From Candidatus Hadarchaeota archaeon (lineage in GTDB: Archaea; Hadarchaeota; Hadarchaeia; Hadarchaeales; Hadarchaeaceae), in assembly GCA_040755315.1 (NCBI GenBank), contig JBFMBF010000017.1:1-24707 (forward strand): DNA of 24,707 bases, in the 5' to 3' direction. Positions within the stretch are counted from its first letter, which is position 1, and the number at the start of each line of letters is the position of its first letter. The notes beneath the pieces are model-generated. The model made no database searches, was not told the DNA's origin, and saw only the letters and a program-made list of their open reading frames with translations. Of this stretch, positions 1 through 16,559 are shown one piece after another. Position numbers and translations under genes: made by a program.

Positions 1-35
1 CGGTCAGAAAGGAGGGCGACTTCTACTCCGCCACC

Positions 36-3000
36 ATGGATCGATACGACGGCAGCTACCTCATTGATGTCTATGTGGGCGGAATGCTCACCTGGTCGAA
101 CGCCGGCAGGTGGTGGGAGCAGTGGGGCGTGGGACAGACCAGAGCAGCACCCCCGATACTGCTCATGATCCGCGACAGCGTAACCGGGGAATACGTGCAG
201 TACCACGACGCTCAGCGGGTCCGGGTCAGCCGCGTGGCTGTTGACACCTGGGTCTACGATTTTGAAGTTTTTGGGATTCTTCCGAGTGTCCCCGGCCATC
301 TCCTTTTAAGGGCGCAGAGAGCCACAGATGGAACCTTGGCTGTAACCCTGCAGGGTCACACAGGTCTTCATCCTTCGGACATCTTCCTCCAGAATCACGA
401 GACCGATGTCCTGCTCTGGTCGAACGCTGGCGGCACGGAGCAGAACCACGTCGGCGAAACGCAGACGGTTTCGGGTTACATCCTGCGCTGGTGCTCCGTC
501 CTGCCCTCGCTGACTTACTCTTACACCGTGCGGGGGGATCATCCCGACAACTACATGATTCCAACGGAAGCATTCTACTACGGCGGGGTCGCTGAATCCG
601 TCAGCTACACCGCATCCGCAAGCGTGACAATCGAAGTCAGGGAGGGTGACGCGGGGGTCCCTGGAGACGCCGGTAACACCATCGCTCAGGCGCGCGCCAT
701 AACCCCCGGCGACTACTGGGGCTACTTCGGCCCGGACGATCCATCCGACTTCTACTCCATCCAATCGCCGAGCGGGCTGCTGAGCGCAAGCATGGCGCCG
801 GGCAGCGACTACGACATCTACCTCTACGACGCGGGCCAGAACCTGCTCGCGAAGTCGGAGAACCGGGGGGACGCGGACGAGGAAATAACATATGCTGTCA
901 AAACGCCGGGGCAGTATTTCCTGGAGGTCCGGAAAGTCGAGGGGTTCGGACCGTATACCTTCAGCGTGGAAATAGAGCCGGAGCTGCCGGTGGTGGCGGT
1001 GGGGCCGGGGCTCAGCTCCCCGGCCGTCGCCTACGGGGACAACCGCTTCCTGGTAGTCTGGAACGACAGGGACAGCCGGATAGCTGGGAAAATATACGAC
1101 CTTGATGGGAATGTTGTAAAATCGAAGTTCACGGTCGCAGCGTCAACTATGCTTGGCGGTCCTTCCGTGGCATTCGGCGGCGGCAGCTTCTTCGTGGCCT
1201 GGCCTTACCAAGATCATTTGGGTGTGTGGCGTATCGGTGGCGCCGTCTTCGACCCGGACGGCAGCGTCGTGAAACCCGACTTCGAGATTGCCAGCGGCTC
1301 AAGCGCGAAGGTCGCATTCGGCGGCGGCAGGTTCATTGTGGCTTGGAAGAATGGGAATGAAATCCGCGCGGAAATGTTCAACGGCTGGGGAGATGGGTTG
1401 GGCACCTTTTCGATCTCCCATCCAGACCATTCGTATTTTGAACCCTCCGAGCCGTTTTCTCCACCGGCACCGCAGGAAGGCGCCGTAGAGGAGTGGAACT
1501 TCCAAAGCATTTCTTTCTCGGGCGGCAGGTTCCATCTGGGCTGGATTGGGCGAGCCTACAAATGGGGACGTTACAGCGAGGCCGAAGAACCAATCGTTTC
1601 AATAAGGTGGGACTGGAGCCGCACACATTTCGGCATAACCCCTGTCACGCCAGCTGGAGTCTTGGGTGAAACTAAAATTTTTGGACTTCGGGAAGAGTAC
1701 TTCGATGAAATTAAAATAGAATATCCCGGTTATCCTCCTTCAGAATCTTCATCATCTTGGTCGAAGGGCTCGTTCAACACAGCTTCTGCCCTGGCCGGAG
1801 GGGACAAAATAATGGTTGGACTCGGCGCAGAAGGTCTTGAAAATATCCTGATCCTGAACGCAGGCGAATATAGTTTGCTGGAGCAGCAGAAGTTCGGGTT
1901 CGGCCCGTCACGACTGATGGTTTTTGACGGAGTCCGGTTCATGGCGGTATTTCCGGGACATGAAAAAGCGGTGTTCACGGACGGGGAAGGCGTTTGGGAC
2001 GAAATTAATCTGAAGGTCTCAATTGCAAATCCCGCGGGGGCAGCGGAAGGCGGAAAATACTTCATTGTCGGGGAAAAAGATGGGAACATCCAAGCCATCG
2101 GCGCCCCAGTATTCCAATCTCTTATTTCTCCGGGCAACAGAAGTCTTGTTGTTTCCCCAGCCTTGGCGATGGACTGGTCGGACGCCAAAGACATCTACGG
2201 AGGAAGCTGCACCTACACTTTACTGCTTGGCAAAGACTCGGGCCTGTCGGTGCCATCTTTCGCCGCCCCAGACATCCTTGCTTCAAACTACTCTTCGATG
2301 CCGGAGCTCGATGACCTTACATATTATTGGCGCGTCGCTGCTCACGGAAAAACAAATATCCGGCTGGAAAACTTGTCCCAGGAAATCAGCGTTGGCCTGC
2401 GCCCGGAGTACAATTCTTGGTCCGAAGTCGGCCTATTTACCGTCGACACCCAAAGCCGGGCCTCCCTCATCGCCGCGGTCAACGGCGCCGCAGGACAATC
2501 ATTATGGATTCCAGCCATGCCCGCCGCCATCACAGCTGAAGCCATGGACAATGTGATAGATGTTGGCGGCATAGAGCTGTGGTACCGGTACAGCCACGAC
2601 GGGGCGAACTGGACCGGATGGGCGCCGGTTTTGGTTGATTATGTGAAAAGCGGAGGCCCCGAGCCGGTCAACGATTCAAGAGCTCATGAAGTTTCCCAGC
2701 TGCCGTGGGAGTGGCAGTACCCGGCCATCAGCAGTTACGAGAATGGAAGGGGCAGGCGTTATTACTACTTCAGGGACTTCTACGACTGGGGCCACTACGA
2801 ATTTTTCAGTGTTTTGAAAGATCGGTGGGGCAATAGGGAACTTCATCCATCCGAGGCGGACGTGCGCGTGTATTTCGAGAAGCCGACGTCGGTGAGGCTT
2901 GGCGACAGCGTGCGTGGTAAAGTTTCAAACTTCCCGAAGCGTTACGATTTCGACGTCCCCGAGAACACGCCGCAGTTGTACGTTAACTTGGACTGGTCCC

Positions 3001-6000
3001 GCGGCGACCTCGACCTGCATCTTTACGACCCGTCAGGCAGACACATCGGCACCACTGGCGAGAACCGTGACCATGAGATTGGCATCCTTGGCGCCGAATG
3101 CTCTGGGCCACTTTCCAAGCCCGAATGGATACTCGTGTCCAAGCCCAGGCCCGGGCGCTGGTCCGCGGAGGTTCGTCCTTATGGTCTAGAAGCGGAGGAG
3201 AATTTCACACTTGAGGTATTTACCGCAGCATCAAGGCCCGAATCGTCTCTCAGCTTGGTTGGGCCGTACTGGCACAACGCTTCGACGACACCGTTTGAAG
3301 TCAGAGCGGAGGCGTTTGAAACCACCATCCGGAAAGGTTGGGAGACAGTTGGTGCCCTGTGGGTCCGCCAGTTTGGCGCTTTGCATGAAGATGTTGCGTA
3401 CGGCATAGTTGTGGACAGCGCGGGAGATGTCTATGTGGCGGGAAGTTTAAGGGACGGCCTGTCCGGTCAGGTTCCTCAAGGAAGCACGGACGTTTTTGTT
3501 CGGAAATACAATGGTCAAGGAAGTGAGCTATGGACCCGCCAGTTTGGCACTTACAGTCAGGATGAGGCCTGGGGAGTTGACATTGGCAGGACGGATGTCA
3601 CAACCGATGGGAACGGCAGCATATACGTCGTTGGTTATACTTGGGGCGCTTTGTCTGGCCAGAGCCACTATGGGGGCAGCGATGGTTTTGTTAGAAAGTA
3701 TGACTCTCATGGCAACGAGCTCTGGACAAGGCAGTTCGGCACTTCAGATGTGGACGCCGCTTTCGGCGTTGCCGCGGGAAGTGATGGAAGCGTGTACGTG
3801 GCAGGCCACACTTATGGTAACCTGTCCAACCAAATCAATCAAGGATTCTCAGACGTGTTCCTGCGGAAGTACGATGCTCATGGCAGCGAGATCTGGACCC
3901 GCCAGTTCGGCACCTCCGGCTATGATTCAACATGGGATGTAACTGTGGATGGCGCCGGAAATGTTTACTCCGTTGGTTTCACAAGTGGCGCCTTGCCCGG
4001 CCAAGCTCACTTAGGAGGTTACGATGTGTTCATAAGGAAATACGATCCTCATGGCAACGAGCTATGGACGAAGCAGTTCGGCACAACTGGCCACGACGAG
4101 GCTTTTGGCGTGGCTTCAGAATCTTCGGGAAACATTTACCTGGTAGGTATTGCTGATGGGGCCTTGCCAGGCCAGGTCGGCTACGGAAGTAACGACGGGT
4201 TTGTGCGGAAATATGATGCGCACGGCAACGAGCTCTGGACGAGGCAGTTCGGAACTTCCTTAGGCGACTGGACTTACAAGGCAGGCGTCGACGCCGCCGG
4301 AAATGTATACATCGCCGGAGCCACAGAAGGGGCTCTTACAGGCTACAGCCAAAAGGGAAATTATGACGCATGTGTGTGGGCATACGATGCCAAAGGCAAT
4401 GAACTCTGGTCCTATCAGTTTGGCACTCCGGGAGTTGACGAGGCTTTCGACGTTGCCGCCGACGGTGCGGGGAATGTTTATGTGGTGGGCTGGGCTTCGG
4501 GTGCCCTGTTTGACCAGACACACCAAGGATATTCCGACGCCTTTGTGATGAAAATAGCGACGTCGGGGATCAAGCAAGTCGAGCTTTGGTACCGCCGCTC
4601 GTCTGACAATGTGGTCTGGTCTGACTGGAAGCCGTGTTCCACCGACAACTCCGAGCCGTTTTCATGGTCGTTCGGCGCTCCGGACGGAGACGGGTATTAT
4701 GAATTTTACAGCGCGGCAATGAACAGGGCTGGAAATCGCGAGTTGCCCCACGTAACAGCCGATGCTCAGGTCAGTGTTGATAAAAAACCTCCACAATCGT
4801 GGGTTCTTTCCCTCGATTCCGGCTGGCGGAACGCGTCGACGACCCCCTTTGAAGTGACAGCCAGTGCATCTGACGGGTTGAGCGGAACCGAGAAAGCCGC
4901 GCTCTGGTACAGGCATTCGGGCGACAACCTCACATGGGGGCGATGGAAACTCTTCGGGACGGACAATCAAGGACCCTGGTCTTGGTCTTTCACGGCTCCA
5001 GATGGCGGAGGATACTACGAATTTTGTTCCACAGCAGTTGATCTTGCGGGCAACGAGGAAGGGGCGCTGATCGATTCCCAACTGTTCAAGATTTCGACTT
5101 TTTCCGGGAGCGTGCGTGGCAGAGCCGTGGCAGAGTTTGAAAACGGAGAATCACATGCCCGCACGAGTTATGCGGACTGGATTGGAATATTTGGTGAGCA
5201 AATCTACGGATATTGGGATGACGGCTGGCCACACTGGATTCATATGGCCATTATGGACAAAGATGAATTTGTAGTGAAAGCCAAGCTGGAAGAATTTTTG
5301 GAAGAAATTGAAGTTGTTTCAGTACCGGTTCCACAACACGTTAGATACTGGCTTTCCCAACTTGACGACCCGGCCGAGTACGGGTTTGGTTCTCAGTGGG
5401 ATGTTGACACGACAACAATCTTCCAGGGATTCAAGGGGAGGATGTGGTTACCAGAACCGATAAAAACCGGAGAACTGGCAGTGCTTTCCGCCGGAGGATA
5501 CATTTATAGTGAAATTTTGCGCGAAGAGATATACGAAAATGTGCGGGCTGAGATTTTTGACCTACTGGGGGAGTTGGAAACTATTGTACGGCACCCCGCA
5601 AGAGCCGAGGCTCGCTTGGCTGTTGACATTACTCCTCCCGAATCGTCTGTTGGACCCATAACACCTTATTGGAGGGTCGCAGGCGCGGTGCCATTCAATG
5701 TTCGCGCCACGACATCCGATGCGCTGAGTGGAGCCGAAAACGTTGAACTCTGGTATCGCCACTCTCAGGACAACCTGATATGGGGCGACTGGAAACTGGT
5801 CGGTGAAACTCCTGCCGTGGAAATAAATCTGCTAAGTGAAAGCTTTGACGGGAAAACTTGGAGTTCATTGGCACTGCAGGGGTGGGATCCTCAGGGCGGA
5901 GCCAATCCCTCCGTGACGGACGGCGTGCTTTTTGTCCCACTAAACTCTTACCCGAAAAAACCCCTGACAGTGGATCCGCCGTTTACAGTTGAGGCCAAGA

Positions 6001-9000
6001 TAAAAAGCGACGGTTGGTCCCACCTCTACATCGCGGGAATAGACGAAATGCAGGTCACACCGCCGGCCGACAACCTCTGGCACACGGCCACCATCATCGC
6101 CACGGCTCCGGTCGACGGAAGGTTCAAAGTGTTGGCATACCTGGACAACGAACTCCAGGATGTGGCCGAAGACTTGGACGCTTCTTGGGCAAGGCTCGAG
6201 TATATAGAGCTGGAGGGTCCGGCCGCATCGGGGAATGCCTGGTTCGACAACATCGTAGTGTACAGGCGGGTTGAACCGAAGTGGTCGTTCAGCGCTCCGG
6301 AAGGGGACGGTTATTATGAGTTTTACTCCATAGCGATTGACCGGGCCGGCAACCGCGAGGAGCCTCCAGACGCGGCAGACGCGCAGGCTGGCGTCGACAC
6401 TACTCCTCCAGAGTCGTCGGCGAATCCGGTCGAGCCCTATTGGCACAACGCCTCGTCCATGCCCTTCGAGGTAACCTCCGCCGCGTCGGACGGCCTGAGC
6501 GGCGTCGGGAAAGTCGAGCTGTACTACAGATACTCGGCGGACAACTTGGACTGGAGCCACTGGAAACCCTACGGCGCCGATTCAGTACCATCGGACGGCT
6601 TTAGCTGGGGCTTCGGCGCCCCCGAAGGCGACGGATACTACGGGTTCATGACCATCGCCACGGACTCTGCAGGGAACGCCGAATCCAAGCCTCTGGCGAG
6701 CCATGAAAACAGTGTCTTCGGCCGCGTCTTGTACGACAACGGCGACCCGGTTGAAGGGGTCCAGGTCAGCTTTTCGTACTGGGACGAACAGACGGCTTCT
6801 TATGAAACAATCAAATACACCGATTCGAACGGCTACTACGAGATACCGATAACCTCGGCGAACCCGCACGGTTACAGCGAGTGGGGCTTCAACGTGATCA
6901 AGTGGATGCCGAGCGGCATGTGGGCCGGTATCGGTACTGGGTTCGAGAACGGCCCGCTACACGTCTTTGGGGAGTACGCCGGAACTTACCTGCCGGAAAG
7001 CAAAACTTGGGCTGTCGACGGCATGATGGGCTCGCGCGTTGACGTTGCGATTTCAGCGAAGCCGGTCACATTCTGGGGCCACAGCGAGTACAAGCGGTTT
7101 TACAACATGGCGGGCTCGCAAACTCTGACGTTTGACTACCCGTTCGGGAAGGCGGACGCGACGCACATGGGAGGGGGGAACGTATACATCGAGGGGGGCG
7201 ACCTGCGGACGAAGTCATTCGATGCGACGCTTTACGACGCGACCGAAGGCAAAGCGATTCTGACGGTAACTGTGGGCGGGCGCGGGGAATACTGGGATTC
7301 GCTTGTCATCGACAATAAAACCGTGTTGCAGAACCTTCTCGGCCACCAGCTGGAGTGGCGAATCAACGCGGCCGATGTCATAGACTACATTTACGCTGGC
7401 AAGTCCTTCTGGGGCGTTGTTCAGAATGTCCCGTCCTACGGCTGGACGCAATCAAGGCACCTTGTCGTGGCGGACTACTCTCCAAATCACGGCGTTGGGC
7501 GACAGGAATCCGAGGCCGGCGTGGATACTGCACCCCCGGAGATTGAGCACGACCCCCTTGACGAATGGCAGAGTTCCGACCCGTACGAGGTCAAGGCTAC
7601 CGTGGTGGATGAAACGTCCGGCCTCGCGCCCGGCTTTCCCTCGCTCCATTATCTTACATTGAACAACCCGACATTTTCAGACGGGTTCGACGGCAGCGCT
7701 CTGGACGCAACGAAGTGGGCCACCGGAAGCACGAAGGTGACCTGTTCTCAAATCGCGACTGCAAACGGGGCGCTTGAGTTGACGGCGAGGGCGGCCAGGT
7801 CCGGAACATACGGCGCGAACTACGTCGTCTCAAAATCACCGTTCGACTTCAACCAGGGGATGGCGTTTGAAATCCCAATGAGCGTCTCAACCTATGACGC
7901 CCCGGCCGACTTCAGGGGCGAGTTCTACCTGACGCCTACATTCACTACCACAACCAACCCGCACGACCAGCCGGACTGGTTAAGGCTCTCAGCGAGCGTC
8001 GACCGCGAAGGAGTCAGGTGGATGCTGCAGCGCAGACGCGGCGGGGGAGGGATTGGGACGCTCGGCGAGAACGAAACCTTCGAGGGGAACGAAAACGCAG
8101 AAGAGCCCCACATGTACACCTCGGGCCCGACGCGGAAGCTCAGCAGCGCCTGGAGGATTTTCATAGACAGCGAGAACGTCACCGTCTGGCTCGACAACGA
8201 GCTGGTGGAGCCGACCAGGCCACACGGGATGAATTTCACCAGCGCATACGCCTACCTGGCCCTGCGGACGAAAGTCGCCCCAGTCTACACCGTCAGGTTC
8301 GACCGTTTTGCCGCCGGAGCGCTGAACTGGACCCAGGCAAACATGCAGCCAACGGGACAGCCGGACGAGTACTCGGCTTCAATTCCCGACATGCCTGATG
8401 AAGCGGCGGTCTGGTACTACATCGGCGCGGCAGACAGGGCTGCAAACACCTCCACGAACCCAGCCGGAGCCCCAGCGAACCCGTACATGTTCATCGTGGA
8501 CAAGGCGCCTCCGGTATCGTTTGTAACCCCCATCACGCTATTCTGGCAGAAATCAACCTCGTTGGCAGTCTCGGCAACCGCGTCTGATGAGGGTAGCGGC
8601 GTTGAATCGGTCCAACTGTTTTACAGATACTCGCCCGACAACCGAATTTGGGGAGACTGGGTATCGCTCGGTGCCGACGGCAATAGTCCGTGGAAGTGGC
8701 AGTTCGGCTTCCAGGACGGCGAGGGGTTCTATGAGTTCTACAGCCTAGCCGTCGACCGCGCCGGCAACGTTGAAGATTTGCTGCCTGAAGCTGACGCTGG
8801 CTGCGGCATCGATTTGACCCCTCCAGAGTCATCTGTCAATCCCGTGACGCCTTACTGGCAGAACGCTTCGATGGTGCCGTTCGTCGTGAATGTCACCGCA
8901 TTTGATGCAACGAGCGGCGTGAAAAGCGTCGGCCTGTACTACCGATATTCAGCTGACAACGGAATCTGGGGCGAATGGGCGCTCCACGGTGTCGACGAAG

Positions 9001-11504
9001 CCGCCCCGTATTCCTGGCAGTTTTCAGCTCCAGACGGCGACGGTTACTATGAGTTTTACAGTGCCGCCACGGACGCTGCTGGAAATGCTGAAGCCGCGTC
9101 AACGGCTACCTCGGGCTGGCTGGCGGGATGGCAGCGCCGCAGGCCGGTGACGATCAGCAACGGCGCGGGGCAGCTGGACGGATACCAGGTGAGAGTCGAG
9201 GTGCCGCGGAGTTCCGACATGAGGCAGGGCTACGAAGACCTCAGGTTCACGATGGGTGACGGCGCAACCCTGCTGCCACACTGGGTCGAGAACCGCGGCA
9301 CGGCATCCGCAGATGTCTGGGTCCGGGTGCCATCGGTCCCAACGGGAGAGACCACAGTCTACATGTACTACGGCAACACGGCCGCCATGGACGCGAGCGA
9401 TGGGAACGCCACTTTCGAGTTCTTCGACGACTACTCAGGAACCTCGCTCGATACCGGAAAGTGGAACGTGAGGTACGGCTCGCCAACCGTGGCCAACTCT
9501 GTTTTGACTCTTGAGGGCAGCGACGGCAAGGACGCGATAAGGAGCAAGGCCTCGTGGGGAACCGGATACGCGTTCAGGTATAAGGACAGGCCGAGGAACG
9601 CGACCGAGTCCCAGGACGCATGGGCCAACGCCAACAGTTCGTGGGACTTCTCGGACGACTCCGAAGCCGTGCTGGCTTTCCCCGGCAACAACCTTATGTA
9701 CTTCAGGACCAGAACGGGCGGCAGCCCGACCACAAGCACCGGCGTCTGGACGGTTTGGGATCCCGACTGGGCCGTCTTTGAGATACAGAGGCCCGACTCC
9801 TCGGCAGCCAGGCTGTTCGGGAACGACACTTTGATAGTGCAGAACACGTCAAACATCCCAACCGTGCCGCTGTTCGTGGGTCACGAGGCAAACGTGAGTA
9901 CCCTTCTGGTGGACTGGTCCCTCGTCCGCAAGATAGCTCTAATTGAGCCGACCACGAGCGTTGGGGCAGAAGAGCAACAGGCGGGGCGGGCGGATGCCAT
10001 GTGCGGCGTGGACACCGTGCCGCCCGCGACCGGTCACGAGCTGTCTGGAGAAGAGGGTGACAACGGCTGGTGGCGCAGCAACGTTGGCATTGAGCTGGGC
10101 GCCGAGGACAACCTGAGCGGCGTGAGCAGGACGCTTTACCGAATCGACGGCGGGGCGTGGCAAACCTATGCTAACCCGTTCATCATCGGCGACGGCATTC
10201 ACATCGTTGACTACCGCTCTGCCGACATTGCTGGCAACTTGGAGGCAATCAGGCCGGTCGAGATAAAAGTTGACACGACCCCGCCAGTTTCATCGGTGAA
10301 TCAAATCGAACCATTCTGGCAGGACTCGGCGCCGTTCACAGTCTCGGTGATGGCGTCCGACGCCACAAGCGGAGTTGAGAGAGTCAAGCTGTTTTACAGA
10401 AGCTCGATAGACAACTCGAACTGGACGGCGTGGGAGTTGTTCGGCAGCGATGATTCGGCGCCGTACGAGTGGCAATTCACGGCGCCGGACGGCTACGCCT
10501 TGTATGAGTTCTACTCGGTTGCCGCAGATGTCGCCGGGAACGTTGAGAGCGCGCCGGATGTTGCAGATTCTTCATGCGGGTTGACAATCCCGGCCGAGGT
10601 AGACATCGACCCCGACACCCTGAACCTGAACAGCAACGGCAAGTGGGTCACCGCCTACATAGAGCTGCCGCAGGGTCACGATTTCGGGAACGTTCGCATA
10701 CTGGGCATAATGCTGAACGACGCGGTCCCGGCGGAGTCGAGCCCCACATACGGGTTCGTGAAGGACCCGCAACTGGTCGATCGAGACGGGGACGGGCTGC
10801 CGGAGCTGATGGTGAAGTTCAGCCGTTCGGCGGTGCAGGCGCTGGTGGACGTCGGCGATGTGAAGCTGACGGTGACCGGGAAGTGGCACGCGGTGCTGTT
10901 CGAGGGGAGCGACAACATCCGCGTGATTGATCCGGGCCAAGACCAGGGCAGCCAAGGAAACGGCCAAAGGTCGCCGACGACGCCTCCAGGACAGAGTGGG
11001 CAGCCTTCAGGTCAAGGGGGTGGCCAAGGGCAAAGCAGCCAGGGAGGGCAGCAGGTGGGCCAGGGACAACCCCAGACACCTTTAGGGCATGGCACCGGCG
11101 GCGGGAACCAGGGCAGTAGCCAGAGCCAGGGCAACGGGCGGGGGCAGTCGCAGTCCAACCCGGGGCACGGCGGCCAGCCACCAGGACAGAACTCCAACGG
11201 CCAGGGCGATGCTGGCCAGGGACAAGGGAACGCGCAGGGCGGCTCCAGCAATCAGGCAGTTGATAATCAAAGCCCGGTAGAAACGTCCCAAGCGCAGGAG
11301 AGTCAGGGCACCTGCAATCAGGACAATCAGGCTCAGGTCGGCCAAGACAACCAATCGCAAGTAAACCAAGTTAATGAAAATCAATGGGTGCCGAGCACGC
11401 CCCAAGGACAGGGAAACCAGAGCGGACAGCAGGCAAACAAGGATAACCAATCATCCCAAGGCCAAGGCAATCAAAACGGGCAGGGAAAGGGCAAGACCAA
11501 ATAA
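36..11504 (+). CDS. Giant (>=3822 aa) multidomain, probably secreted or cell-surface protein; N-terminus probably lies outside the window
   Basis: Single uninterrupted ORF. The same frame is open from nt 3 (VRKEGDFYSAT before the Met at 36), and no signal peptide is visible. Contains PPC-like, propeller, Ig-like, lectin-like and DUF2341-like segments, many N-x-S/T sequons and a Q/G-rich C-terminus. Confidence 0.9.
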   Translation: MDRYDGSYLIDVYVGGMLTWSNAGRWWEQWGVGQTRAAPPILLMIRDSVTGEYVQYHDAQRVRVSRVAVDTWVYDFEVFGILPSVPGHLLLRAQRATDGTLAVTLQGHTGLHPSDIFLQNHETDVLLWSNAGGTEQNHVGETQTVSGYILRWCSVLPSLTYSYTVRGDHPDNYMIPTEAFYYGGVAESVSYTASASVTIEVREGDAGVPGDAGNTIAQARAITPGDYWGYFGPDDPSDFYSIQSPSGLLSASMAPGSDYDIYLYDAGQNLLAKSENRGDADEEITYAVKTPGQYFLEVRKVEGFGPYTFSVEIEPELPVVAVGPGLSSPAVAYGDNRFLVVWNDRDSRIAGKIYDLDGNVVKSKFTVAASTMLGGPSVAFGGGSFFVAWPYQDHLGVWRIGGAVFDPDGSVVKPDFEIASGSSAKVAFGGGRFIVAWKNGNEIRAEMFNGWGDGLGTFSISHPDHSYFEPSEPFSPPAPQEGAVEEWNFQSISFSGGRFHLGWIGRAYKWGRYSEAEEPIVSIRWDWSRTHFGITPVTPAGVLGETKIFGLREEYFDEIKIEYPGYPPSESSSSWSKGSFNTASALAGGDKIMVGLGAEGLENILILNAGEYSLLEQQKFGFGPSRLMVFDGVRFMAVFPGHEKAVFTDGEGVWDEINLKVSIANPAGAAEGGKYFIVGEKDGNIQAIGAPVFQSLISPGNRSLVVSPALAMDWSDAKDIYGGSCTYTLLLGKDSGLSVPSFAAPDILASNYSSMPELDDLTYYWRVAAHGKTNIRLENLSQEISVGLRPEYNSWSEVGLFTVDTQSRASLIAAVNGAAGQSLWIPAMPAAITAEAMDNVIDVGGIELWYRYSHDGANWTGWAPVLVDYVKSGGPEPVNDSRAHEVSQLPWEWQYPAISSYENGRGRRYYYFRDFYDWGHYEFFSVLKDRWGNRELHPSEADVRVYFEKPTSVRLGDSVRGKVSNFPKRYDFDVPENTPQLYVNLDWSRGDLDLHLYDPSGRHIGTTGENRDHEIGILGAECSGPLSKPEWILVSKPRPGRWSAEVRPYGLEAEENFTLEVFTAASRPESSLSLVGPYWHNASTTPFEVRAEAFETTIRKGWETVGALWVRQFGALHEDVAYGIVVDSAGDVYVAGSLRDGLSGQVPQGSTDVFVRKYNGQGSELWTRQFGTYSQDEAWGVDIGRTDVTTDGNGSIYVVGYTWGALSGQSHYGGSDGFVRKYDSHGNELWTRQFGTSDVDAAFGVAAGSDGSVYVAGHTYGNLSNQINQGFSDVFLRKYDAHGSEIWTRQFGTSGYDSTWDVTVDGAGNVYSVGFTSGALPGQAHLGGYDVFIRKYDPHGNELWTKQFGTTGHDEAFGVASESSGNIYLVGIADGALPGQVGYGSNDGFVRKYDAHGNELWTRQFGTSLGDWTYKAGVDAAGNVYIAGATEGALTGYSQKGNYDACVWAYDAKGNELWSYQFGTPGVDEAFDVAADGAGNVYVVGWASGALFDQTHQGYSDAFVMKIATSGIKQVELWYRRSSDNVVWSDWKPCSTDNSEPFSWSFGAPDGDGYYEFYSAAMNRAGNRELPHVTADAQVSVDKKPPQSWVLSLDSGWRNASTTPFEVTASASDGLSGTEKAALWYRHSGDNLTWGRWKLFGTDNQGPWSWSFTAPDGGGYYEFCSTAVDLAGNEEGALIDSQLFKISTFSGSVRGRAVAEFENGESHARTSYADWIGIFGEQIYGYWDDGWPHWIHMAIMDKDEFVVKAKLEEFLEEIEVVSVPVPQHVRYWLSQLDDPAEYGFGSQWDVDTTTIFQGFKGRMWLPEPIKTGELAVLSAGGYIYSEILREEIYENVRAEIFDLLGELETIVRHPARAEARLAVDITPPESSVGPITPYWRVAGAVPFNVRATTSDALSGAENVELWYRHSQDNLIWGDWKLVGETPAVEINLLSESFDGKTWSSLALQGWDPQGGANPSVTDGVLFVPLNSYPKKPLTVDPPFTVEAKIKSDGWSHLYIAGIDEMQVTPPADNLWHTATIIATAPVDGRFKVLAYLDNELQDVAEDLDASWARLEYIELEGPAASGNAWFDNIVVYRRVEPKWSFSAPEGDGYYEFYSIAIDRAGNREEPPDAADAQAGVDTTPPESSANPVEPYWHNASSMPFEVTSAASDGLSGVGKVELYYRYSADNLDWSHWKPYGADSVPSDGFSWGFGAPEGDGYYGFMTIATDSAGNAESKPLASHENSVFGRVLYDNGDPVEGVQVSFSYWDEQTASYETIKYTDSNGYYEIPITSANPHGYSEWGFNVIKWMPSGMWAGIGTGFENGPLHVFGEYAGTYLPESKTWAVDGMMGSRVDVAISAKPVTFWGHSEYKRFYNMAGSQTLTFDYPFGKADATHMGGGNVYIEGGDLRTKSFDATLYDATEGKAILTVTVGGRGEYWDSLVIDNKTVLQNLLGHQLEWRINAADVIDYIYAGKSFWGVVQNVPSYGWTQSRHLVVADYSPNHGVGRQESEAGVDTAPPEIEHDPLDEWQSSDPYEVKATVVDETSGLAPGFPSLHYLTLNNPTFSDGFDGSALDATKWATGSTKVTCSQIATANGALELTARAARSGTYGANYVVSKSPFDFNQGMAFEIPMSVSTYDAPADFRGEFYLTPTFTTTTNPHDQPDWLRLSASVDREGVRWMLQRRRGGGGIGTLGENETFEGNENAEEPHMYTSGPTRKLSSAWRIFIDSENVTVWLDNELVEPTRPHGMNFTSAYAYLALRTKVAPVYTVRFDRFAAGALNWTQANMQPTGQPDEYSASIPDMPDEAAVWYYIGAADRAANTSTNPAGAPANPYMFIVDKAPPVSFVTPITLFWQKSTSLAVSATASDEGSGVESVQLFYRYSPDNRIWGDWVSLGADGNSPWKWQFGFQDGEGFYEFYSLAVDRAGNVEDLLPEADAGCGIDLTPPESSVNPVTPYWQNASMVPFVVNVTAFDATSGVKSVGLYYRYSADNGIWGEWALHGVDEAAPYSWQFSAPDGDGYYEFYSAATDAAGNAEAASTATSGWLAGWQRRRPVTISNGAGQLDGYQVRVEVPRSSDMRQGYEDLRFTMGDGATLLPHWVENRGTASADVWVRVPSVPTGETTVYMYYGNTAAMDASDGNATFEFFDDYSGTSLDTGKWNVRYGSPTVANSVLTLEGSDGKDAIRSKASWGTGYAFRYKDRPRNATESQDAWANANSSWDFSDDSEAVLAFPGNNLMYFRTRTGGSPTTSTGVWTVWDPDWAVFEIQRPDSSAARLFGNDTLIVQNTSNIPTVPLFVGHEANVSTLLVDWSLVRKIALIEPTTSVGAEEQQAGRADAMCGVDTVPPATGHELSGEEGDNGWWRSNVGIELGAEDNLSGVSRTLYRIDGGAWQTYANPFIIGDGIHIVDYRSADIAGNLEAIRPVEIKVDTTPPVSSVNQIEPFWQDSAPFTVSVMASDATSGVERVKLFYRSSIDNSNWTAWELFGSDDSAPYEWQFTAPDGYALYEFYSVAADVAGNVESAPDVADSSCGLTIPAEVDIDPDTLNLNSNGKWVTAYIELPQGHDFGNVRILGIMLNDAVPAESSPTYGFVKDPQLVDRDGDGLPELMVKFSRSAVQALVDVGDVKLTVTGKWHAVLFEGSDNIRVIDPGQDQGSQGNGQRSPTTPPGQSGQPSGQGGGQGQSSQGGQQVGQGQPQTPLGHGTGGGNQGSSQSQGNGRGQSQSNPGHGGQPPGQNSNGQGDAGQGQGNAQGGSSNQAVDNQSPVETSQAQESQGTCNQDNQAQVGQDNQSQVNQVNENQWVPSTPQGQGNQSGQQANKDNQSSQGQGNQNGQGKGKTK
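663..975 (+). other. PPC-like (pre-peptidase C-terminal) domain 1 within the giant ORF
   Basis: Motifs DAGNT..A..I, D.SDFY.I, DYDIYLYD, DEEITY, PGQYFLEV, GPYTFSV. Confidence 0.75.
1000..2100 (+). repeat. Degenerate beta-propeller-like repeats (PxVAxGxxxFxVxW)
   Basis: PAVAYGDNRFLVVW, PSVAFGGGSFFVAW, AKVAFGGGRFIVAW, ISFSGGRFHLGW; boundaries approximate. Confidence 0.6.
2890..3225 (+). other. PPC-like domain 2 within the giant ORF
   Basis: YDFDVPE..QLYVNLDW..GDLDLHLYDPSG...PEWILVSKPRPGRWSAEV..FTLEV. Confidence 0.7.
3360..4560 (+). repeat. Seven tandem SBBP-type beta-propeller repeats (57 aa, 171 nt)
   Basis: W-x-x-Q-F-G motifs start at 3360, 3531, 3723, 3894, 4065, 4236 and 4407 (spacing 171 nt, once 192 nt). 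Each is followed by D.A.GV..D..GNVYV.G and D.FVRKYD..G.EL or close variants. Confidence 0.9.
9113..9975 (+). other. DUF2341-like domain plus lectin-like extension within the giant ORF
   Basis: GWLAGWQRRRPVTI, YQVRV, DLRFT, LLPHWVE, VWVRVPSVP, VYMYYGN, ATFEFFDD, VDWSLVRK. Confidence 0.8.
10930..11501 (+). repeat. Gln/Gly/Asn/Ser low-complexity C-terminal tail (~190 aa)
   Basis: Repeated GQG, QGN, PPGQ and QDNQ units; ends GQGKGKTK; no hydrophobic transmembrane segment. Confidence 0.9.
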
Positions 11505-14860: not shown

Positions 14861-14969
14861 CGGAACCCTGACGACTGTGGTTCTGGGCTTAATTTGGTTT
14901 TGGGAGCGGCGCTTGGCTTAACCTTATCAAAAAGTGTGGGTTTATTTAATCGGGAGTAAGGTAAGGTGC

Positions 14970-16559
14970 ATGCAAAAGACGGCAAAAATAAGAAAGCTGG
15001 CCCATAACGGCGTCCTGGTCCCGGCCTACGGGCCGCAGGGTTTTGCCATAGGCTACGATGGCAGAAAAATCAAACTGACGCCGGATCAGGAAGAGATGGC
15101 AGTTTCCTGGGCCCGGAAACTAGGGACGGACTATGTGAAAGACCCGGTCTTCGCGAGGAACTTTGCCAGGGATTTCTCCAAAGCTCTCGGGCTGGAAAAG
15201 GAAGCTAGGATGGACGACTTTGACTTTTCAAGAATAACTCAATGGCTGGAAAAGGAAAAAACAAGGAAAGAAAAAATGCCGCGGGAGGAAAAAAGGGCGC
15301 TGGCTGAAGCCAGGGAAAAAATCAGGGAAACCAACAGGGAAAAATACGGCTATGCAGTCCTGAACGGCGAGAAAGTTGAAATTGCCAACTACATGGTGGA
15401 GCCACCGTCGATATTCATGGGGAGAGGCAAGCATCCTCTGCGCGGGAGATGGAAGCCAAGTGTTGAATACGAAGACATCACCCTGAACCTTTCTGAAGAT
15501 GCTCCAACCCCAAAGCTTCCAGCTGGCAGAAAGTGGAGTGGAAGGGTGTTTGACCCCACGGCCCTCTGGGTGGCGAGGTGGAGGGACAAGCTGGCAGACA
15601 AGATGAAGTACGTCTGGATATCGGAGACTGCCAGGCCGAGGCAGGAGCGGGAGATGGAGAAGTTCAACACCGCGCTGAAGCTTCAGGACCGTATAGAAGA
15701 TGTGCGCAGATACATTTTACAAAACCTGAACTCGAAAGATATGCTCAGGCGCAAGGTGGCAACTGTTGCTTACCTGATAGACGCCCTCAAGCTCAGAGTC
15801 GGTGACGAGAAGGAAAAAGACGAAGCCGATACCGTAGGGGCCACCACCCTGCGAGGCGCGCATGTCAAGATAAACTCGGGTGGAAAAGTGAACTTTGATT
15901 TCTTGGGGAAGGACTCGGTGAGGTGGACGAAGACGGTGGAGCTGCCGCCGCAGGTTGTTCATAACTTGAAATCCCTCATCAAGGGGCCCCGTGACATGAT
16001 ATTCAATGGCGTCCGCTCAAACCTTGTAAACTCTTTTCTGAACGAGGCGATGCCTGGTCTTACCGCGAAGGTCTTCAGAACTTACCATGCCACGAAAATA
16101 GTGAGCGACTATCTCTCCCAAAACAATGTTTCTCCTTCAGACCCAGAAATCAAGAAAAAATTTGTCGCGACATCGGCAAACCTCCGGGCTGCCATTGCCT
16201 GCAACCACAAGCGCAAGCTCCCAAAGAGTTGGGAGTCGTCTATGGAGAAAAAAACAATGCGCCTCAAGTCGCTGGAAGAAAAGCTCAGAGAACTCAGGGA
16301 CATGCCCAAAACAATGGCACGGCTCAAAAGGATGAAGAGGCTGCGGGCGGAAATCAAGTCCGCGAAATTGAAGCTTGAAATGGCCAGCATGACCAAGAAC
16401 TACAACCTCGTCACATCACTCAAGAGTTACATAGACCCGAGAGTCTACGCCATCTGGGCCAAGAAAAACTCGTACGACTGGAAGCAGGTATACCCGAAGA
16501 GCCTGCAAAGGAAGCTGTTGTGGGTCGAAGAAGACTTCGGCAAGTGCCAATCAGATTAA
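14970..16559 (+). CDS. top1B: Eukaryote-like DNA topoisomerase IB
   Basis: L.HNGV, VEPP.IFMGRGKHPLRG, LRVGDEK, FDFLGKDS, LTAKVFRTYHA, CNHKR, TSLKSYIDPR (catalytic Tyr codon 16428-16430). ATG at 14970 is preceded by AAGGTG and by TTTATTTAA at 14941. Confidence 0.95.
   Translation: MQKTAKIRKLAHNGVLVPAYGPQGFAIGYDGRKIKLTPDQEEMAVSWARKLGTDYVKDPVFARNFARDFSKALGLEKEARMDDFDFSRITQWLEKEKTRKEKMPREEKRALAEAREKIRETNREKYGYAVLNGEKVEIANYMVEPPSIFMGRGKHPLRGRWKPSVEYEDITLNLSEDAPTPKLPAGRKWSGRVFDPTALWVARWRDKLADKMKYVWISETARPRQEREMEKFNTALKLQDRIEDVRRYILQNLNSKDMLRRKVATVAYLIDALKLRVGDEKEKDEADTVGATTLRGAHVKINSGGKVNFDFLGKDSVRWTKTVELPPQVVHNLKSLIKGPRDMIFNGVRSNLVNSFLNEAMPGLTAKVFRTYHATKIVSDYLSQNNVSPSDPEIKKKFVATSANLRAAIACNHKRKLPKSWESSMEKKTMRLKSLEEKLRELRDMPKTMARLKRMKRLRAEIKSAKLKLEMASMTKNYNLVTSLKSYIDPRVYAIWAKKNSYDWKQVYPKSLQRKLLWVEEDFGKCQSD

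Follow-up and report, generated by a model that had tools for sequence, protein, structure and literature searches.

The window analysed here, a stretch of 24,707 nucleotides (nt), is contig C17 of the 1.21-Mb, 87% complete genome of a Candidatus Hadarchaeota archaeon (assembly GCA_040755315.1, contig JBFMBF010000017.1). It starts with a giant open reading frame (ORF) that is open at the 5' end of the contig. Within this ORF, ten repeats resembling immunoglobulin (Ig) or FN3 domains, termed R0 to R9, occupy positions 2445-10583. R6, R8 and R9 are intact, and R1, R2, R3, R4, R5 and R7 are split by inserts of 414, 175, 153, 266, 222 and 293 amino acids (aa), respectively, all of them in one frame. 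The inserts are called passengers below and carry the number of their host repeat. Our results support a design in which whole domains are inserted into loops of the repeats and are not lined up like beads on a string, as had already been proposed in a first-pass annotation. The features of the ORF are as follows:

3..11504 (+): giant ORF, 3,833 codons, single open frame, open at the contig 5' end
2445..2867 (+): R0, a divergent copy of the scaffold repeat, extended by ~18 aa in each of two loops (C'E and EF)
3222..3317 (+): R1, strands A-B (38 bits, profile 5-28)
3318..4559 (+): passenger 1 (414 aa), an SBBP beta-propeller within the BC loop (site a); Pfam PF06739, E 3.7e-38, seven stretches
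4560..4778 (+): R1, strands C-G
4779..5069 (+): R2, strands A-F and start of G
5070..5594 (+): passenger 2, 175 aa, in the G-strand bulge (site c), without Pfam or NCBIfam match
5595..5624 (+): R2, closing strand (second half of G); tail 10.7 bits, strand 278-282 of the model
5625..5807 (+): R3, strands A-C'
5808..6266 (+): passenger 3, 153-aa beta-sandwich in the C'E loop (site b), ConA-like through motif resemblance only
6267..6395 (+): R3, strands E-G; predicted local distance difference test (pLDDT) score 95-97
6396..6695 (+): R4, strands A-F and start of G
6696..7493 (+): passenger 4, 266 aa, site c; its first stretch resembles CarboxypepD_reg/Big_1, with a score below cut-off
7494..7523 (+): R4, closing strand, degenerate (0.2 bits)
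7524..7658 (+): R5, divergent Ig host, strands A-C
7659..8324 (+): passenger 5, 222 aa, in the CC' loop (site d), without Pfam match
8325..8498 (+): R5, strands C'-G, by direct reading
8499..8810 (+): R6, intact repeat
8811..9101 (+): R7, strands A-F and start of G
9102..9980 (+): passenger 7, 293 aa, site c; DUF2341 (PF10102, E 1.2e-26), most likely hosting a ConA/GH16-like jelly roll (~9414-9935), with its own closing strand at ~9936-9980
9981..10010 (+): R7, closing strand (18.7 bits)
10011..10271 (+): R8, short intact Ig repeat, OmpL47-type (NF047446)
10272..10583 (+): R9, intact repeat, Big_7
10584..10940 (+): C-terminal domain with DxDxDG motif, 119 aa, common to ten ORFs of the genome
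10941..11501 (+): tail rich in Gln, Gly, Ser and Asn, 187 aa, with lysines at its end

When the inserts were excised in silico, the rejoined R1-R4 and R7 were 38-58% identical to R6 and R9 (R4 versus R6 38%, the others 40-58%). R5 belongs to a divergent Ig type, with 28-29% identity to R6 and R9 and 20-29% to the other repeats; genome searches with it gave matches in 2 of 66 genomes. A hidden Markov model (HMM) was then built solely from the two intact repeats R6 and R9. Both halves of R3 match it in register (profile 1-60 at aa 1875-1936, E 9e-18; profile 66-104 at aa 2093-2131, E 2.5e-13), and R2, R4 and R7 match profile positions 1-95/96 with E 1e-28 or better. Furthermore, 16 natural tandem pairs of intact repeats could be aligned to R2+R3 with MAFFT, leaving two long gaps which span the inserts. 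R9 is recognized by Pfam Big_7 with 28.5 bits (cut-off 24.1), R6 stays just under this cut-off with 22.2 bits, and R8 matches the NCBIfam OmpL47-type model NF047446 with 62.5 bits (cut-off 40).

The strands of the repeat, as placed by the structure models described below, are A (6-9), B (24-31), C (37-47), C' (57-62), E (67-71), F (78-88) and a G strand following a bulge. On this frame the insertions fall into the BC loop (R1, site a), the C'E loop (R3, site b), the CC' loop (R5, site d) and the G-strand bulge (R2, R4 and R7, site c). The first-pass annotation had placed the six large inserts correctly, and their coordinates hold. Its statement that the scaffold resumes in register after each insert is confirmed by the excision, the alignment and the two-repeat HMM, the closing strand of R4 being degenerate. 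It had named the repeats at ~8502-8813 and ~10275-10580 as the only intact ones; both are indeed intact, but R8 at 10011-10271 had been overlooked. Likewise, the sites do recur as it had described, but at four loops instead of three, since its second loop comprises both C'E (R3, insert after C') and CC' (R5, insert before C'). An additional insert of ~50 aa near 2640-2790 turned out to consist of two ~18-aa extensions flanking the W.W strand of R0.

An insert at site c leaves just 8-10 residues of its own repeat to follow it, which makes this tail the most vulnerable part of the interpretation. Its motif was scored in different contexts. In contiguous repeats its median score is 16.1 bits (n=23), and after an open scaffold repeat plus insert it is 10.7 bits (n=17; the four negative cases have an intervening domain). 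The median is -12.8 bits ahead of 77 scaffold starts that have no open repeat upstream, and only three of these reach 8 bits: one lies at a contig edge, one after a CBM96 insert and one has its upstream repeat not in the locus. The p value of this comparison (8e-7) overstates its significance because the sequences are related. In the relatives P0168 and P0169, 11 of 12 open scaffolds carry the tail motif at 5 bits or more, and a pooled count gives 38 of 42 at this threshold, which is partly circular as many rows had been chosen by their tail score. In the window itself, the tails of R2 and R7 score 10.7 and 18.7 bits. A generic linker would be expected ahead of every repeat, which is not what is seen: the motif is absent before repeats that lack an open repeat upstream.

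Structures were predicted with AlphaFold2 for R7 and for the pair R2+R3. The alignment for R7 had 30 rows, with zero rows over the tail; the resulting head consists of strands A-F with no G strand, and the passenger folds well. Alignments with passenger rows falling on Ig columns were discarded. No R7+R8 alignment with clean tail support was found among 133 trials. For R2+R3, the alignment consisted of the 16 natural tandem intact pairs and two natural split relatives. In this model the scaffold blocks have pLDDT values of 85-97, and the tail of R2 forms a strand (278-282). The solved domain 9kvu can be superimposed with 91 of 94 residues over model residues 1-284 (Z 11.1, root-mean-square deviation (rmsd) 2.0), and 4xed with 95 of 97 residues over residues 283-541 (Z 9.1), in both cases across the insert. 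The tandem FN3-like pair 3pdd aligns with 180 of 190 residues over model residues 6-544 (Z 12.0, rmsd 6.5). Foldseek searches with the same model returned mainly long matches of low template-modelling (TM) score to large multi-domain chains, and passengers 2 and 3 remained unnamed. According to these predictions it is feasible that the split repeats R2 and R3 refold as complete Ig domains stacked end to end, which agrees with the continuous stalk proposed in the first-pass annotation.

To follow the passengers beyond the window, 150 representative proteins were parsed, yielding 737 scaffold copies, of which 588 were intact and 49, in 30 proteins, were split; 9 of these 49 probably reflect parser errors and were left out. 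A pool of 83 rows was assembled from loci, representatives and 8 of 24 further proteins, and 15 duplicate or doubtful rows and 3 ortholog rows were removed from it. The final set comprises 65 inserts from 29 proteins (42 at site c, 12 in CC', 7 in BC and 4 in C'E, with P0082 assigned to CC' by eye against a near-tied score). The natural inserts range from 108 to 444 aa, on a domain of 104 residues. Single-linkage clustering gave 27 clusters. Ten of them have two or more members, and five of these ten are spread over different loops; one of the clusters, F2, merges inserts of DUF2341 plus ConA with inserts of LamG only.

Four of the six passengers of the window have homologs at another loop (32-69% identity). 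The propeller of passenger 1, here in BC, has a homolog in C'E of P0003 (32%). Passenger 3, here in C'E and found in 1 of 66 genomes, shares 68-69% identity with passengers located at site c in P0008 and P0168. Passenger 5, here in CC', belongs to a cluster with 13 site-c rows, two of them in paralogs of the same genome (52-67% identity among those compared), and the DUF2341 passenger, here at site c, is found in CC' of P0034 (32-35%) and of others. Homologs of passenger 2 were detected at the same site only (L002 and L043, 31-35%), and for passenger 4 no homolog was found. Passenger 5 gave no alignment to PDB sequences below E 0.3, and its matches in the ESM Atlas are mostly unnamed clusters. 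Named passengers of relatives include PQQ and Kelch propellers, CBM96, LamG and PF06439. Passenger 2 has a G+C content of 0.47 (0.49 at third codon positions), compared to 0.57 in its flanks, the lowest of 25 gene segments (others 0.53-0.63), which suggests a different origin. Thus, the interchangeability of passengers claimed before is borne out over evolutionary time, the same families being present at different loops in relatives.

The DUF2341 passenger also occurs outside the scaffold, in a genome of the same genus and within an FN3-type repeat. In the latter case (L057:2813-3736, minus strand) the passenger starts midway through a repeat of the FN3 type that belongs to another family; nesting is therefore not limited to the scaffold described here. 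A subtilase (S8, E 1.8e-48) together with CarboxypepD_reg was observed inside an FN3-like repeat of a 4,169-codon ORF on contig C2 of the same genome (L004:8708-10561, minus strand).

DUF2341 is most likely a split host domain itself. Residues 202-375 of the passenger 7 model form a ConA/GH16-like jelly roll (VIA Z 18.9, rmsd 2.6, 169 aligned residues; Foldseek E 9e-9), which is followed by a confident strand at 381-384. A closing-strand motif was found within 450 aa after the start of DUF2341 in 16 of the 49 copies for which the downstream sequence was long enough, compared to 19 of 890 control windows (strict pattern). At L117:748-1638 (minus strand) a Kelch propeller takes the place of the jelly roll between DUF2341 and its closing motif, and at L114:703-1593 (minus strand) a variant closing motif follows Kelch repeats. 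It is this recurrence of the motif after either a jelly roll or a Kelch propeller that makes a split host probable, the strand pairing itself being deduced. In the literature listings and abstract openings covered, we found no description of DUF2341 as a split host, an aspect that the 84-position Pfam model does not cover.

Furthermore, the pace and mode of passenger exchange were assessed. DNA copies of the scaffold motifs within the gene are 60-88% alike. At the insert borders, shared words of 5-6 nt (direct) and 5-9 nt (inverted) are within background, and no flanking repeats were found. In P0008 and P0168, which are 73.5% identical over 1,538 aa, neither the passengers nor their order differ. 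On a tree built for the 42 site-c hosts, the distribution of cluster F1 follows that of its hosts (5 changes versus 11.2 in shuffled data), which is not the case for F2 (6 versus 5.7); with 4 of 39 branches starred, the resolution of this tree is poor and no order of events can be read from it. The best copy of a passenger within the genome is that of passenger 5 in the paralog on contig C1, with 75% nucleotide identity over 523 nt. Passenger coding segments may be moved between loops and genes by rare in-frame recombination, and units of host plus passenger would also be duplicated together, so that a dedicated switching machinery would be unneeded. The conserved order, the border repeats at background level and the divergence of the DNA repeats fit such unit duplication with rare relocation and do not fit programmed switching; the surface variation suggested by the first-pass annotation is not upheld in this sense. 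Two further candidates were rejected, namely inteins, as the HN/HQ plus C/S/T splice end is present in 0 of 6 inserts, and mobile cassettes, in view of the background level of the border repeats.

The start of the giant gene lies off the contig, and no signal peptide is present in the visible part. Residues 1-220 of the ORF match residues 659-873 of P0168, which begins with a signal-peptide-like stretch. Since paralogs and relatives carry signal-peptide-like N-termini, we infer from their sequences that the protein is secreted. The 119-aa domain with the DxDxDG motif is shared by ten ORFs, that of the window (region 10584-11501) and ORFs on contigs C1, C3, C7, C8, C9, C14, C22, C31 and C38. 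It is mostly located at or near the C-terminus, several of these ORFs have signal-peptide-like starts, and a Gln/Gly/Asn-rich tail follows in five of them. The domain has no match in Pfam or NCBIfam, and searches of the ESM Atlas, with low recognition, returned unnamed clusters only. Our guess is that it serves as a surface-docking or sorting domain. By analogy with their ConA/L-lectin, LamG, CBM96 and propeller folds, the passengers would bind glycans, and the same folds suggest a role in adhesion. The catalytic pattern of GH16, which we take to be ExDxxE/ExDxE, is present in 0 of 65 passenger rows. We favour adhesion or glycan capture, with a degradative platform in second place.

Matches to the scaffold profile were obtained in 40 of 66 genomes of the phylum and, at E values up to 0.001, in 3,929 protein representatives. 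According to the record titles of the named loci with scaffold relatives, 8 of 12 are from Hadarchaeota/Hadesarchaea, 3 from Thermoplasmatota and 1 from Saccharibacteria, and the two best named protein matches are from Hadesarchaea. Two paralogs of the same genome, on contigs C1 (2,567 aa) and C31 (1,965 aa), share with the giant ORF both the split scaffold and the C-terminal domain, and their N-termini resemble signal peptides; in a third one, on C9, the scaffold repeats are all intact. Long arrays of a 16-17-aa Trp/Thr-rich repeat were found beside intact scaffold repeats on C9 (L003, C9:1-6060), where a membrane helix at the C-terminus and a tail rich in Pro are also present. Pieces of paralogous genes, consisting of C-terminal domain and tail or of leader and first domain, are located at the ends of C9 (L012) and C7 and at the start of C1; the family is therefore larger than the assembly shows. 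Nucleotides 1-252 of the window are 90% identical to the end of contig C13 (L011), with the same starting base, and the frame on C13 stops after 130 codons. The assembly probably broke here, in a repeat common to both contigs, and the C13 copy would be a truncated paralog. Downstream of the giant ORF, the neighbours resemble housekeeping genes, the immediate next gene being tgtA. The ORF at 14934-16559 (541 aa), without NCBIfam match, resembles a type IB topoisomerase in its motifs.

Taken together, we regard the architecture as real, with good support from the sequences and moderate support from the models. The explanation that we consider likely is a chain of Ig/FN3-like domains in which six repeats are split at four loops. 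The two halves of each split repeat would refold around the passenger into a complete Ig domain, the refolded repeats would stack end to end into a stalk that is likely extracellular, the sugar-binding passengers would be held out as side branches, and the shared C-terminal domain may retain the protein at the surface. Several observations weigh against this explanation. In the R7 model the closing strand is undocked (residues 393-399, pLDDT <50), so that the reassembly of split halves, as it had been anticipated, is predicted for R2 and R3 when intact repeats are supplied in the alignment, but not for the last strand of the unaided R7 model. The R2+R3 model in turn partly reproduces the contacts of the 16 intact tandem rows supplied, its passengers are of low confidence (mean pLDDT 61; passenger 2 mostly <45, passenger 3 ~28-73), and sites a and d lie outside the refolding models, which cover R2, R3 and R7 (sites b and c). 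The tail of R4 is degenerate (0.2 bits), passengers 2, 4 and 5 obtained no family assignment in the Pfam and NCBIfam searches, and no membrane helix or anchor is visible in the ORF including its tail. A more far-reaching version, a universal display chassis with four sockets, is put forward tentatively, and we consider it rather doubtful. In this version, lectin, propeller and enzyme-like domains would be moved between loops and nested in tiers to give branched surface trees, docked via an undescribed calcium-loop C-terminal domain that is shared by many secreted proteins and separate from S-layer, lipid and PGF-CTERM anchors.

The same architecture could also serve as a scavenging platform for substrate capture and the breakdown of polysaccharides or proteins, more than as an adhesin. 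GH16 hydrolases are the nearest structural neighbours of the inner domain of passenger 7 (Z 17-19), the site-a passenger of L001 matches the 3-keto-disaccharide hydrolase family PF06439, P0168 carries PF00082, and a complete subtilase resides within an FN3-like repeat of another protein of the same genome. However, lectins and CBM66 score nearly as high as GH16 (Z 16-17), the GH16 motif is missing from all 65 passenger rows, and Pfam detects no enzyme family anywhere in the ORF of the window; such a platform thus appears unlikely. Still less probable is that the 'ADA..GV' stretch at site c is a linker or pairs with a neighbour, so that three of the six inserts would stand in line after a six-stranded Ig domain. 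This would account for the undocked tail of R7, the weak tail of R4 and the mere 8-10 residues of the tail, but the motif tracks the state of the upstream and not of the downstream repeat, it equals the G-strand motif of intact repeats, and the solved homolog needs the tail to reach 91 of 94 aligned residues. That programmed recombination swaps passenger cassettes and thereby varies the cell surface within a population seems very improbable to us. Several paralogs of the genome do share passengers, as in the case of passenger 5 on C1, and contigs break at shared gene parts; near-identical cassettes are absent, however, the direct border words of 5-6 nt equal background, the DNA repeats have diverged to 60-88%, the order is kept in P0008 and P0168, and F1 clusters with its hosts on the tree. 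Finally, an assembly chimera of paralogous genes, to which the start of the contig inside a repeat shared with C13 might point, has a negligible probability: the frame is open over 11.5 kb, the 409-aa fragment P0152, which has two substitutions, covers R6, R7 and the junction with the insert, and the same types of junction occur in independent proteins.

Among solved structures, the Big_7/FN3-like spacers CelAly B1 (9kvu) and C. thermocellum CbhA (3pdd, 3pe9) come nearest to the scaffold both in sequence (E 1.4e-4) and in fold (Z 11-12); unlike the split repeats described here, their chains are continuous domains. The inner domain of passenger 7 shares its fold with the jelly rolls of GH16, L-type lectins and CBM66, at 8-17% identity and without the GH16 catalytic motif. 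In the tenth FN3 domain and the Adnectins, insertions are tolerated in the BC, DE and FG loops, which share one pole of the domain (PMC3003446). By analogy, sites a, b and roughly c would map to this BC/DE/FG pole, and site d, corresponding to the CD loop, to the opposite one. Adnectins have engineered short loops, whereas here whole natural domains of 108-444 aa are accommodated. The scaffold repeat, a natural domain of 104 residues with four loops that take such inserts, may be suited as a chassis in protein engineering. A text search of PMC5550230 found no mention of split or inserted domains. In the literature listings and abstract openings covered, no description of this design in Hadarchaeota was found, nor one of the surface biology of the phylum.

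The closest known systems are RTX adhesins, in which split Ig-like (BIg) domains project ligand-binding domains, as described for V. cholerae FrhA (PMC10865825) and A. hydrophila AhLap (PMC12077191) and in a survey of 35 RTX adhesins (bioRxiv 10.1101/2025.09.30.679566). These reports contain a crystal structure of a split domain with its passenger, second-level nesting, two budding positions and swapped binding domains. As predicted for the archaeal protein, a discontinuous Ig-like stalk domain buds its passenger sideways, and the passenger may itself be a split host. RTX passengers include carbohydrate-binding modules, whose likeness to the archaeal passengers is by fold only. A discontinuous Ig-like domain refolding around its insert is supported here by the sequence and by the alignment-aided model, the unaided R7 model having left its tail undocked. 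The differences are the archaeal host, another Ig family (Big_7/OmpL47-like, FN3-like), four loops all in one chain with six loaded repeats, compared to two or three ligand-binding domains described as typical of the RTX adhesins, one passenger family at different loops, and at least 27 passenger clusters. Moreover, no Pfam match to RTX repeats was obtained in 14 pieces covering the visible ORF, the C-terminus of which is a Gln/Gly-rich tail, and its N-terminal end, where RTX adhesins have a retention module, lies off the contig. The protein works like the split-domain RTX adhesins but is not an RTX adhesin.

The principle is therefore not new in kind, split-domain display having already been published for RTX adhesins. 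What is new is an archaeal scaffold family with four usable loops, all in one chain, with loop-changing passengers and a second tier. Split-domain display is hereby extended from type I-secreted bacterial adhesins to uncultured archaea with a different scaffold, and direct cases of one passenger family in different loops are provided (passenger 3, 68-69%). The rule of splitting should also be helpful in flagging unannotated segments of such proteins as likely business ends, passengers 2-5 being defined targets in this respect.

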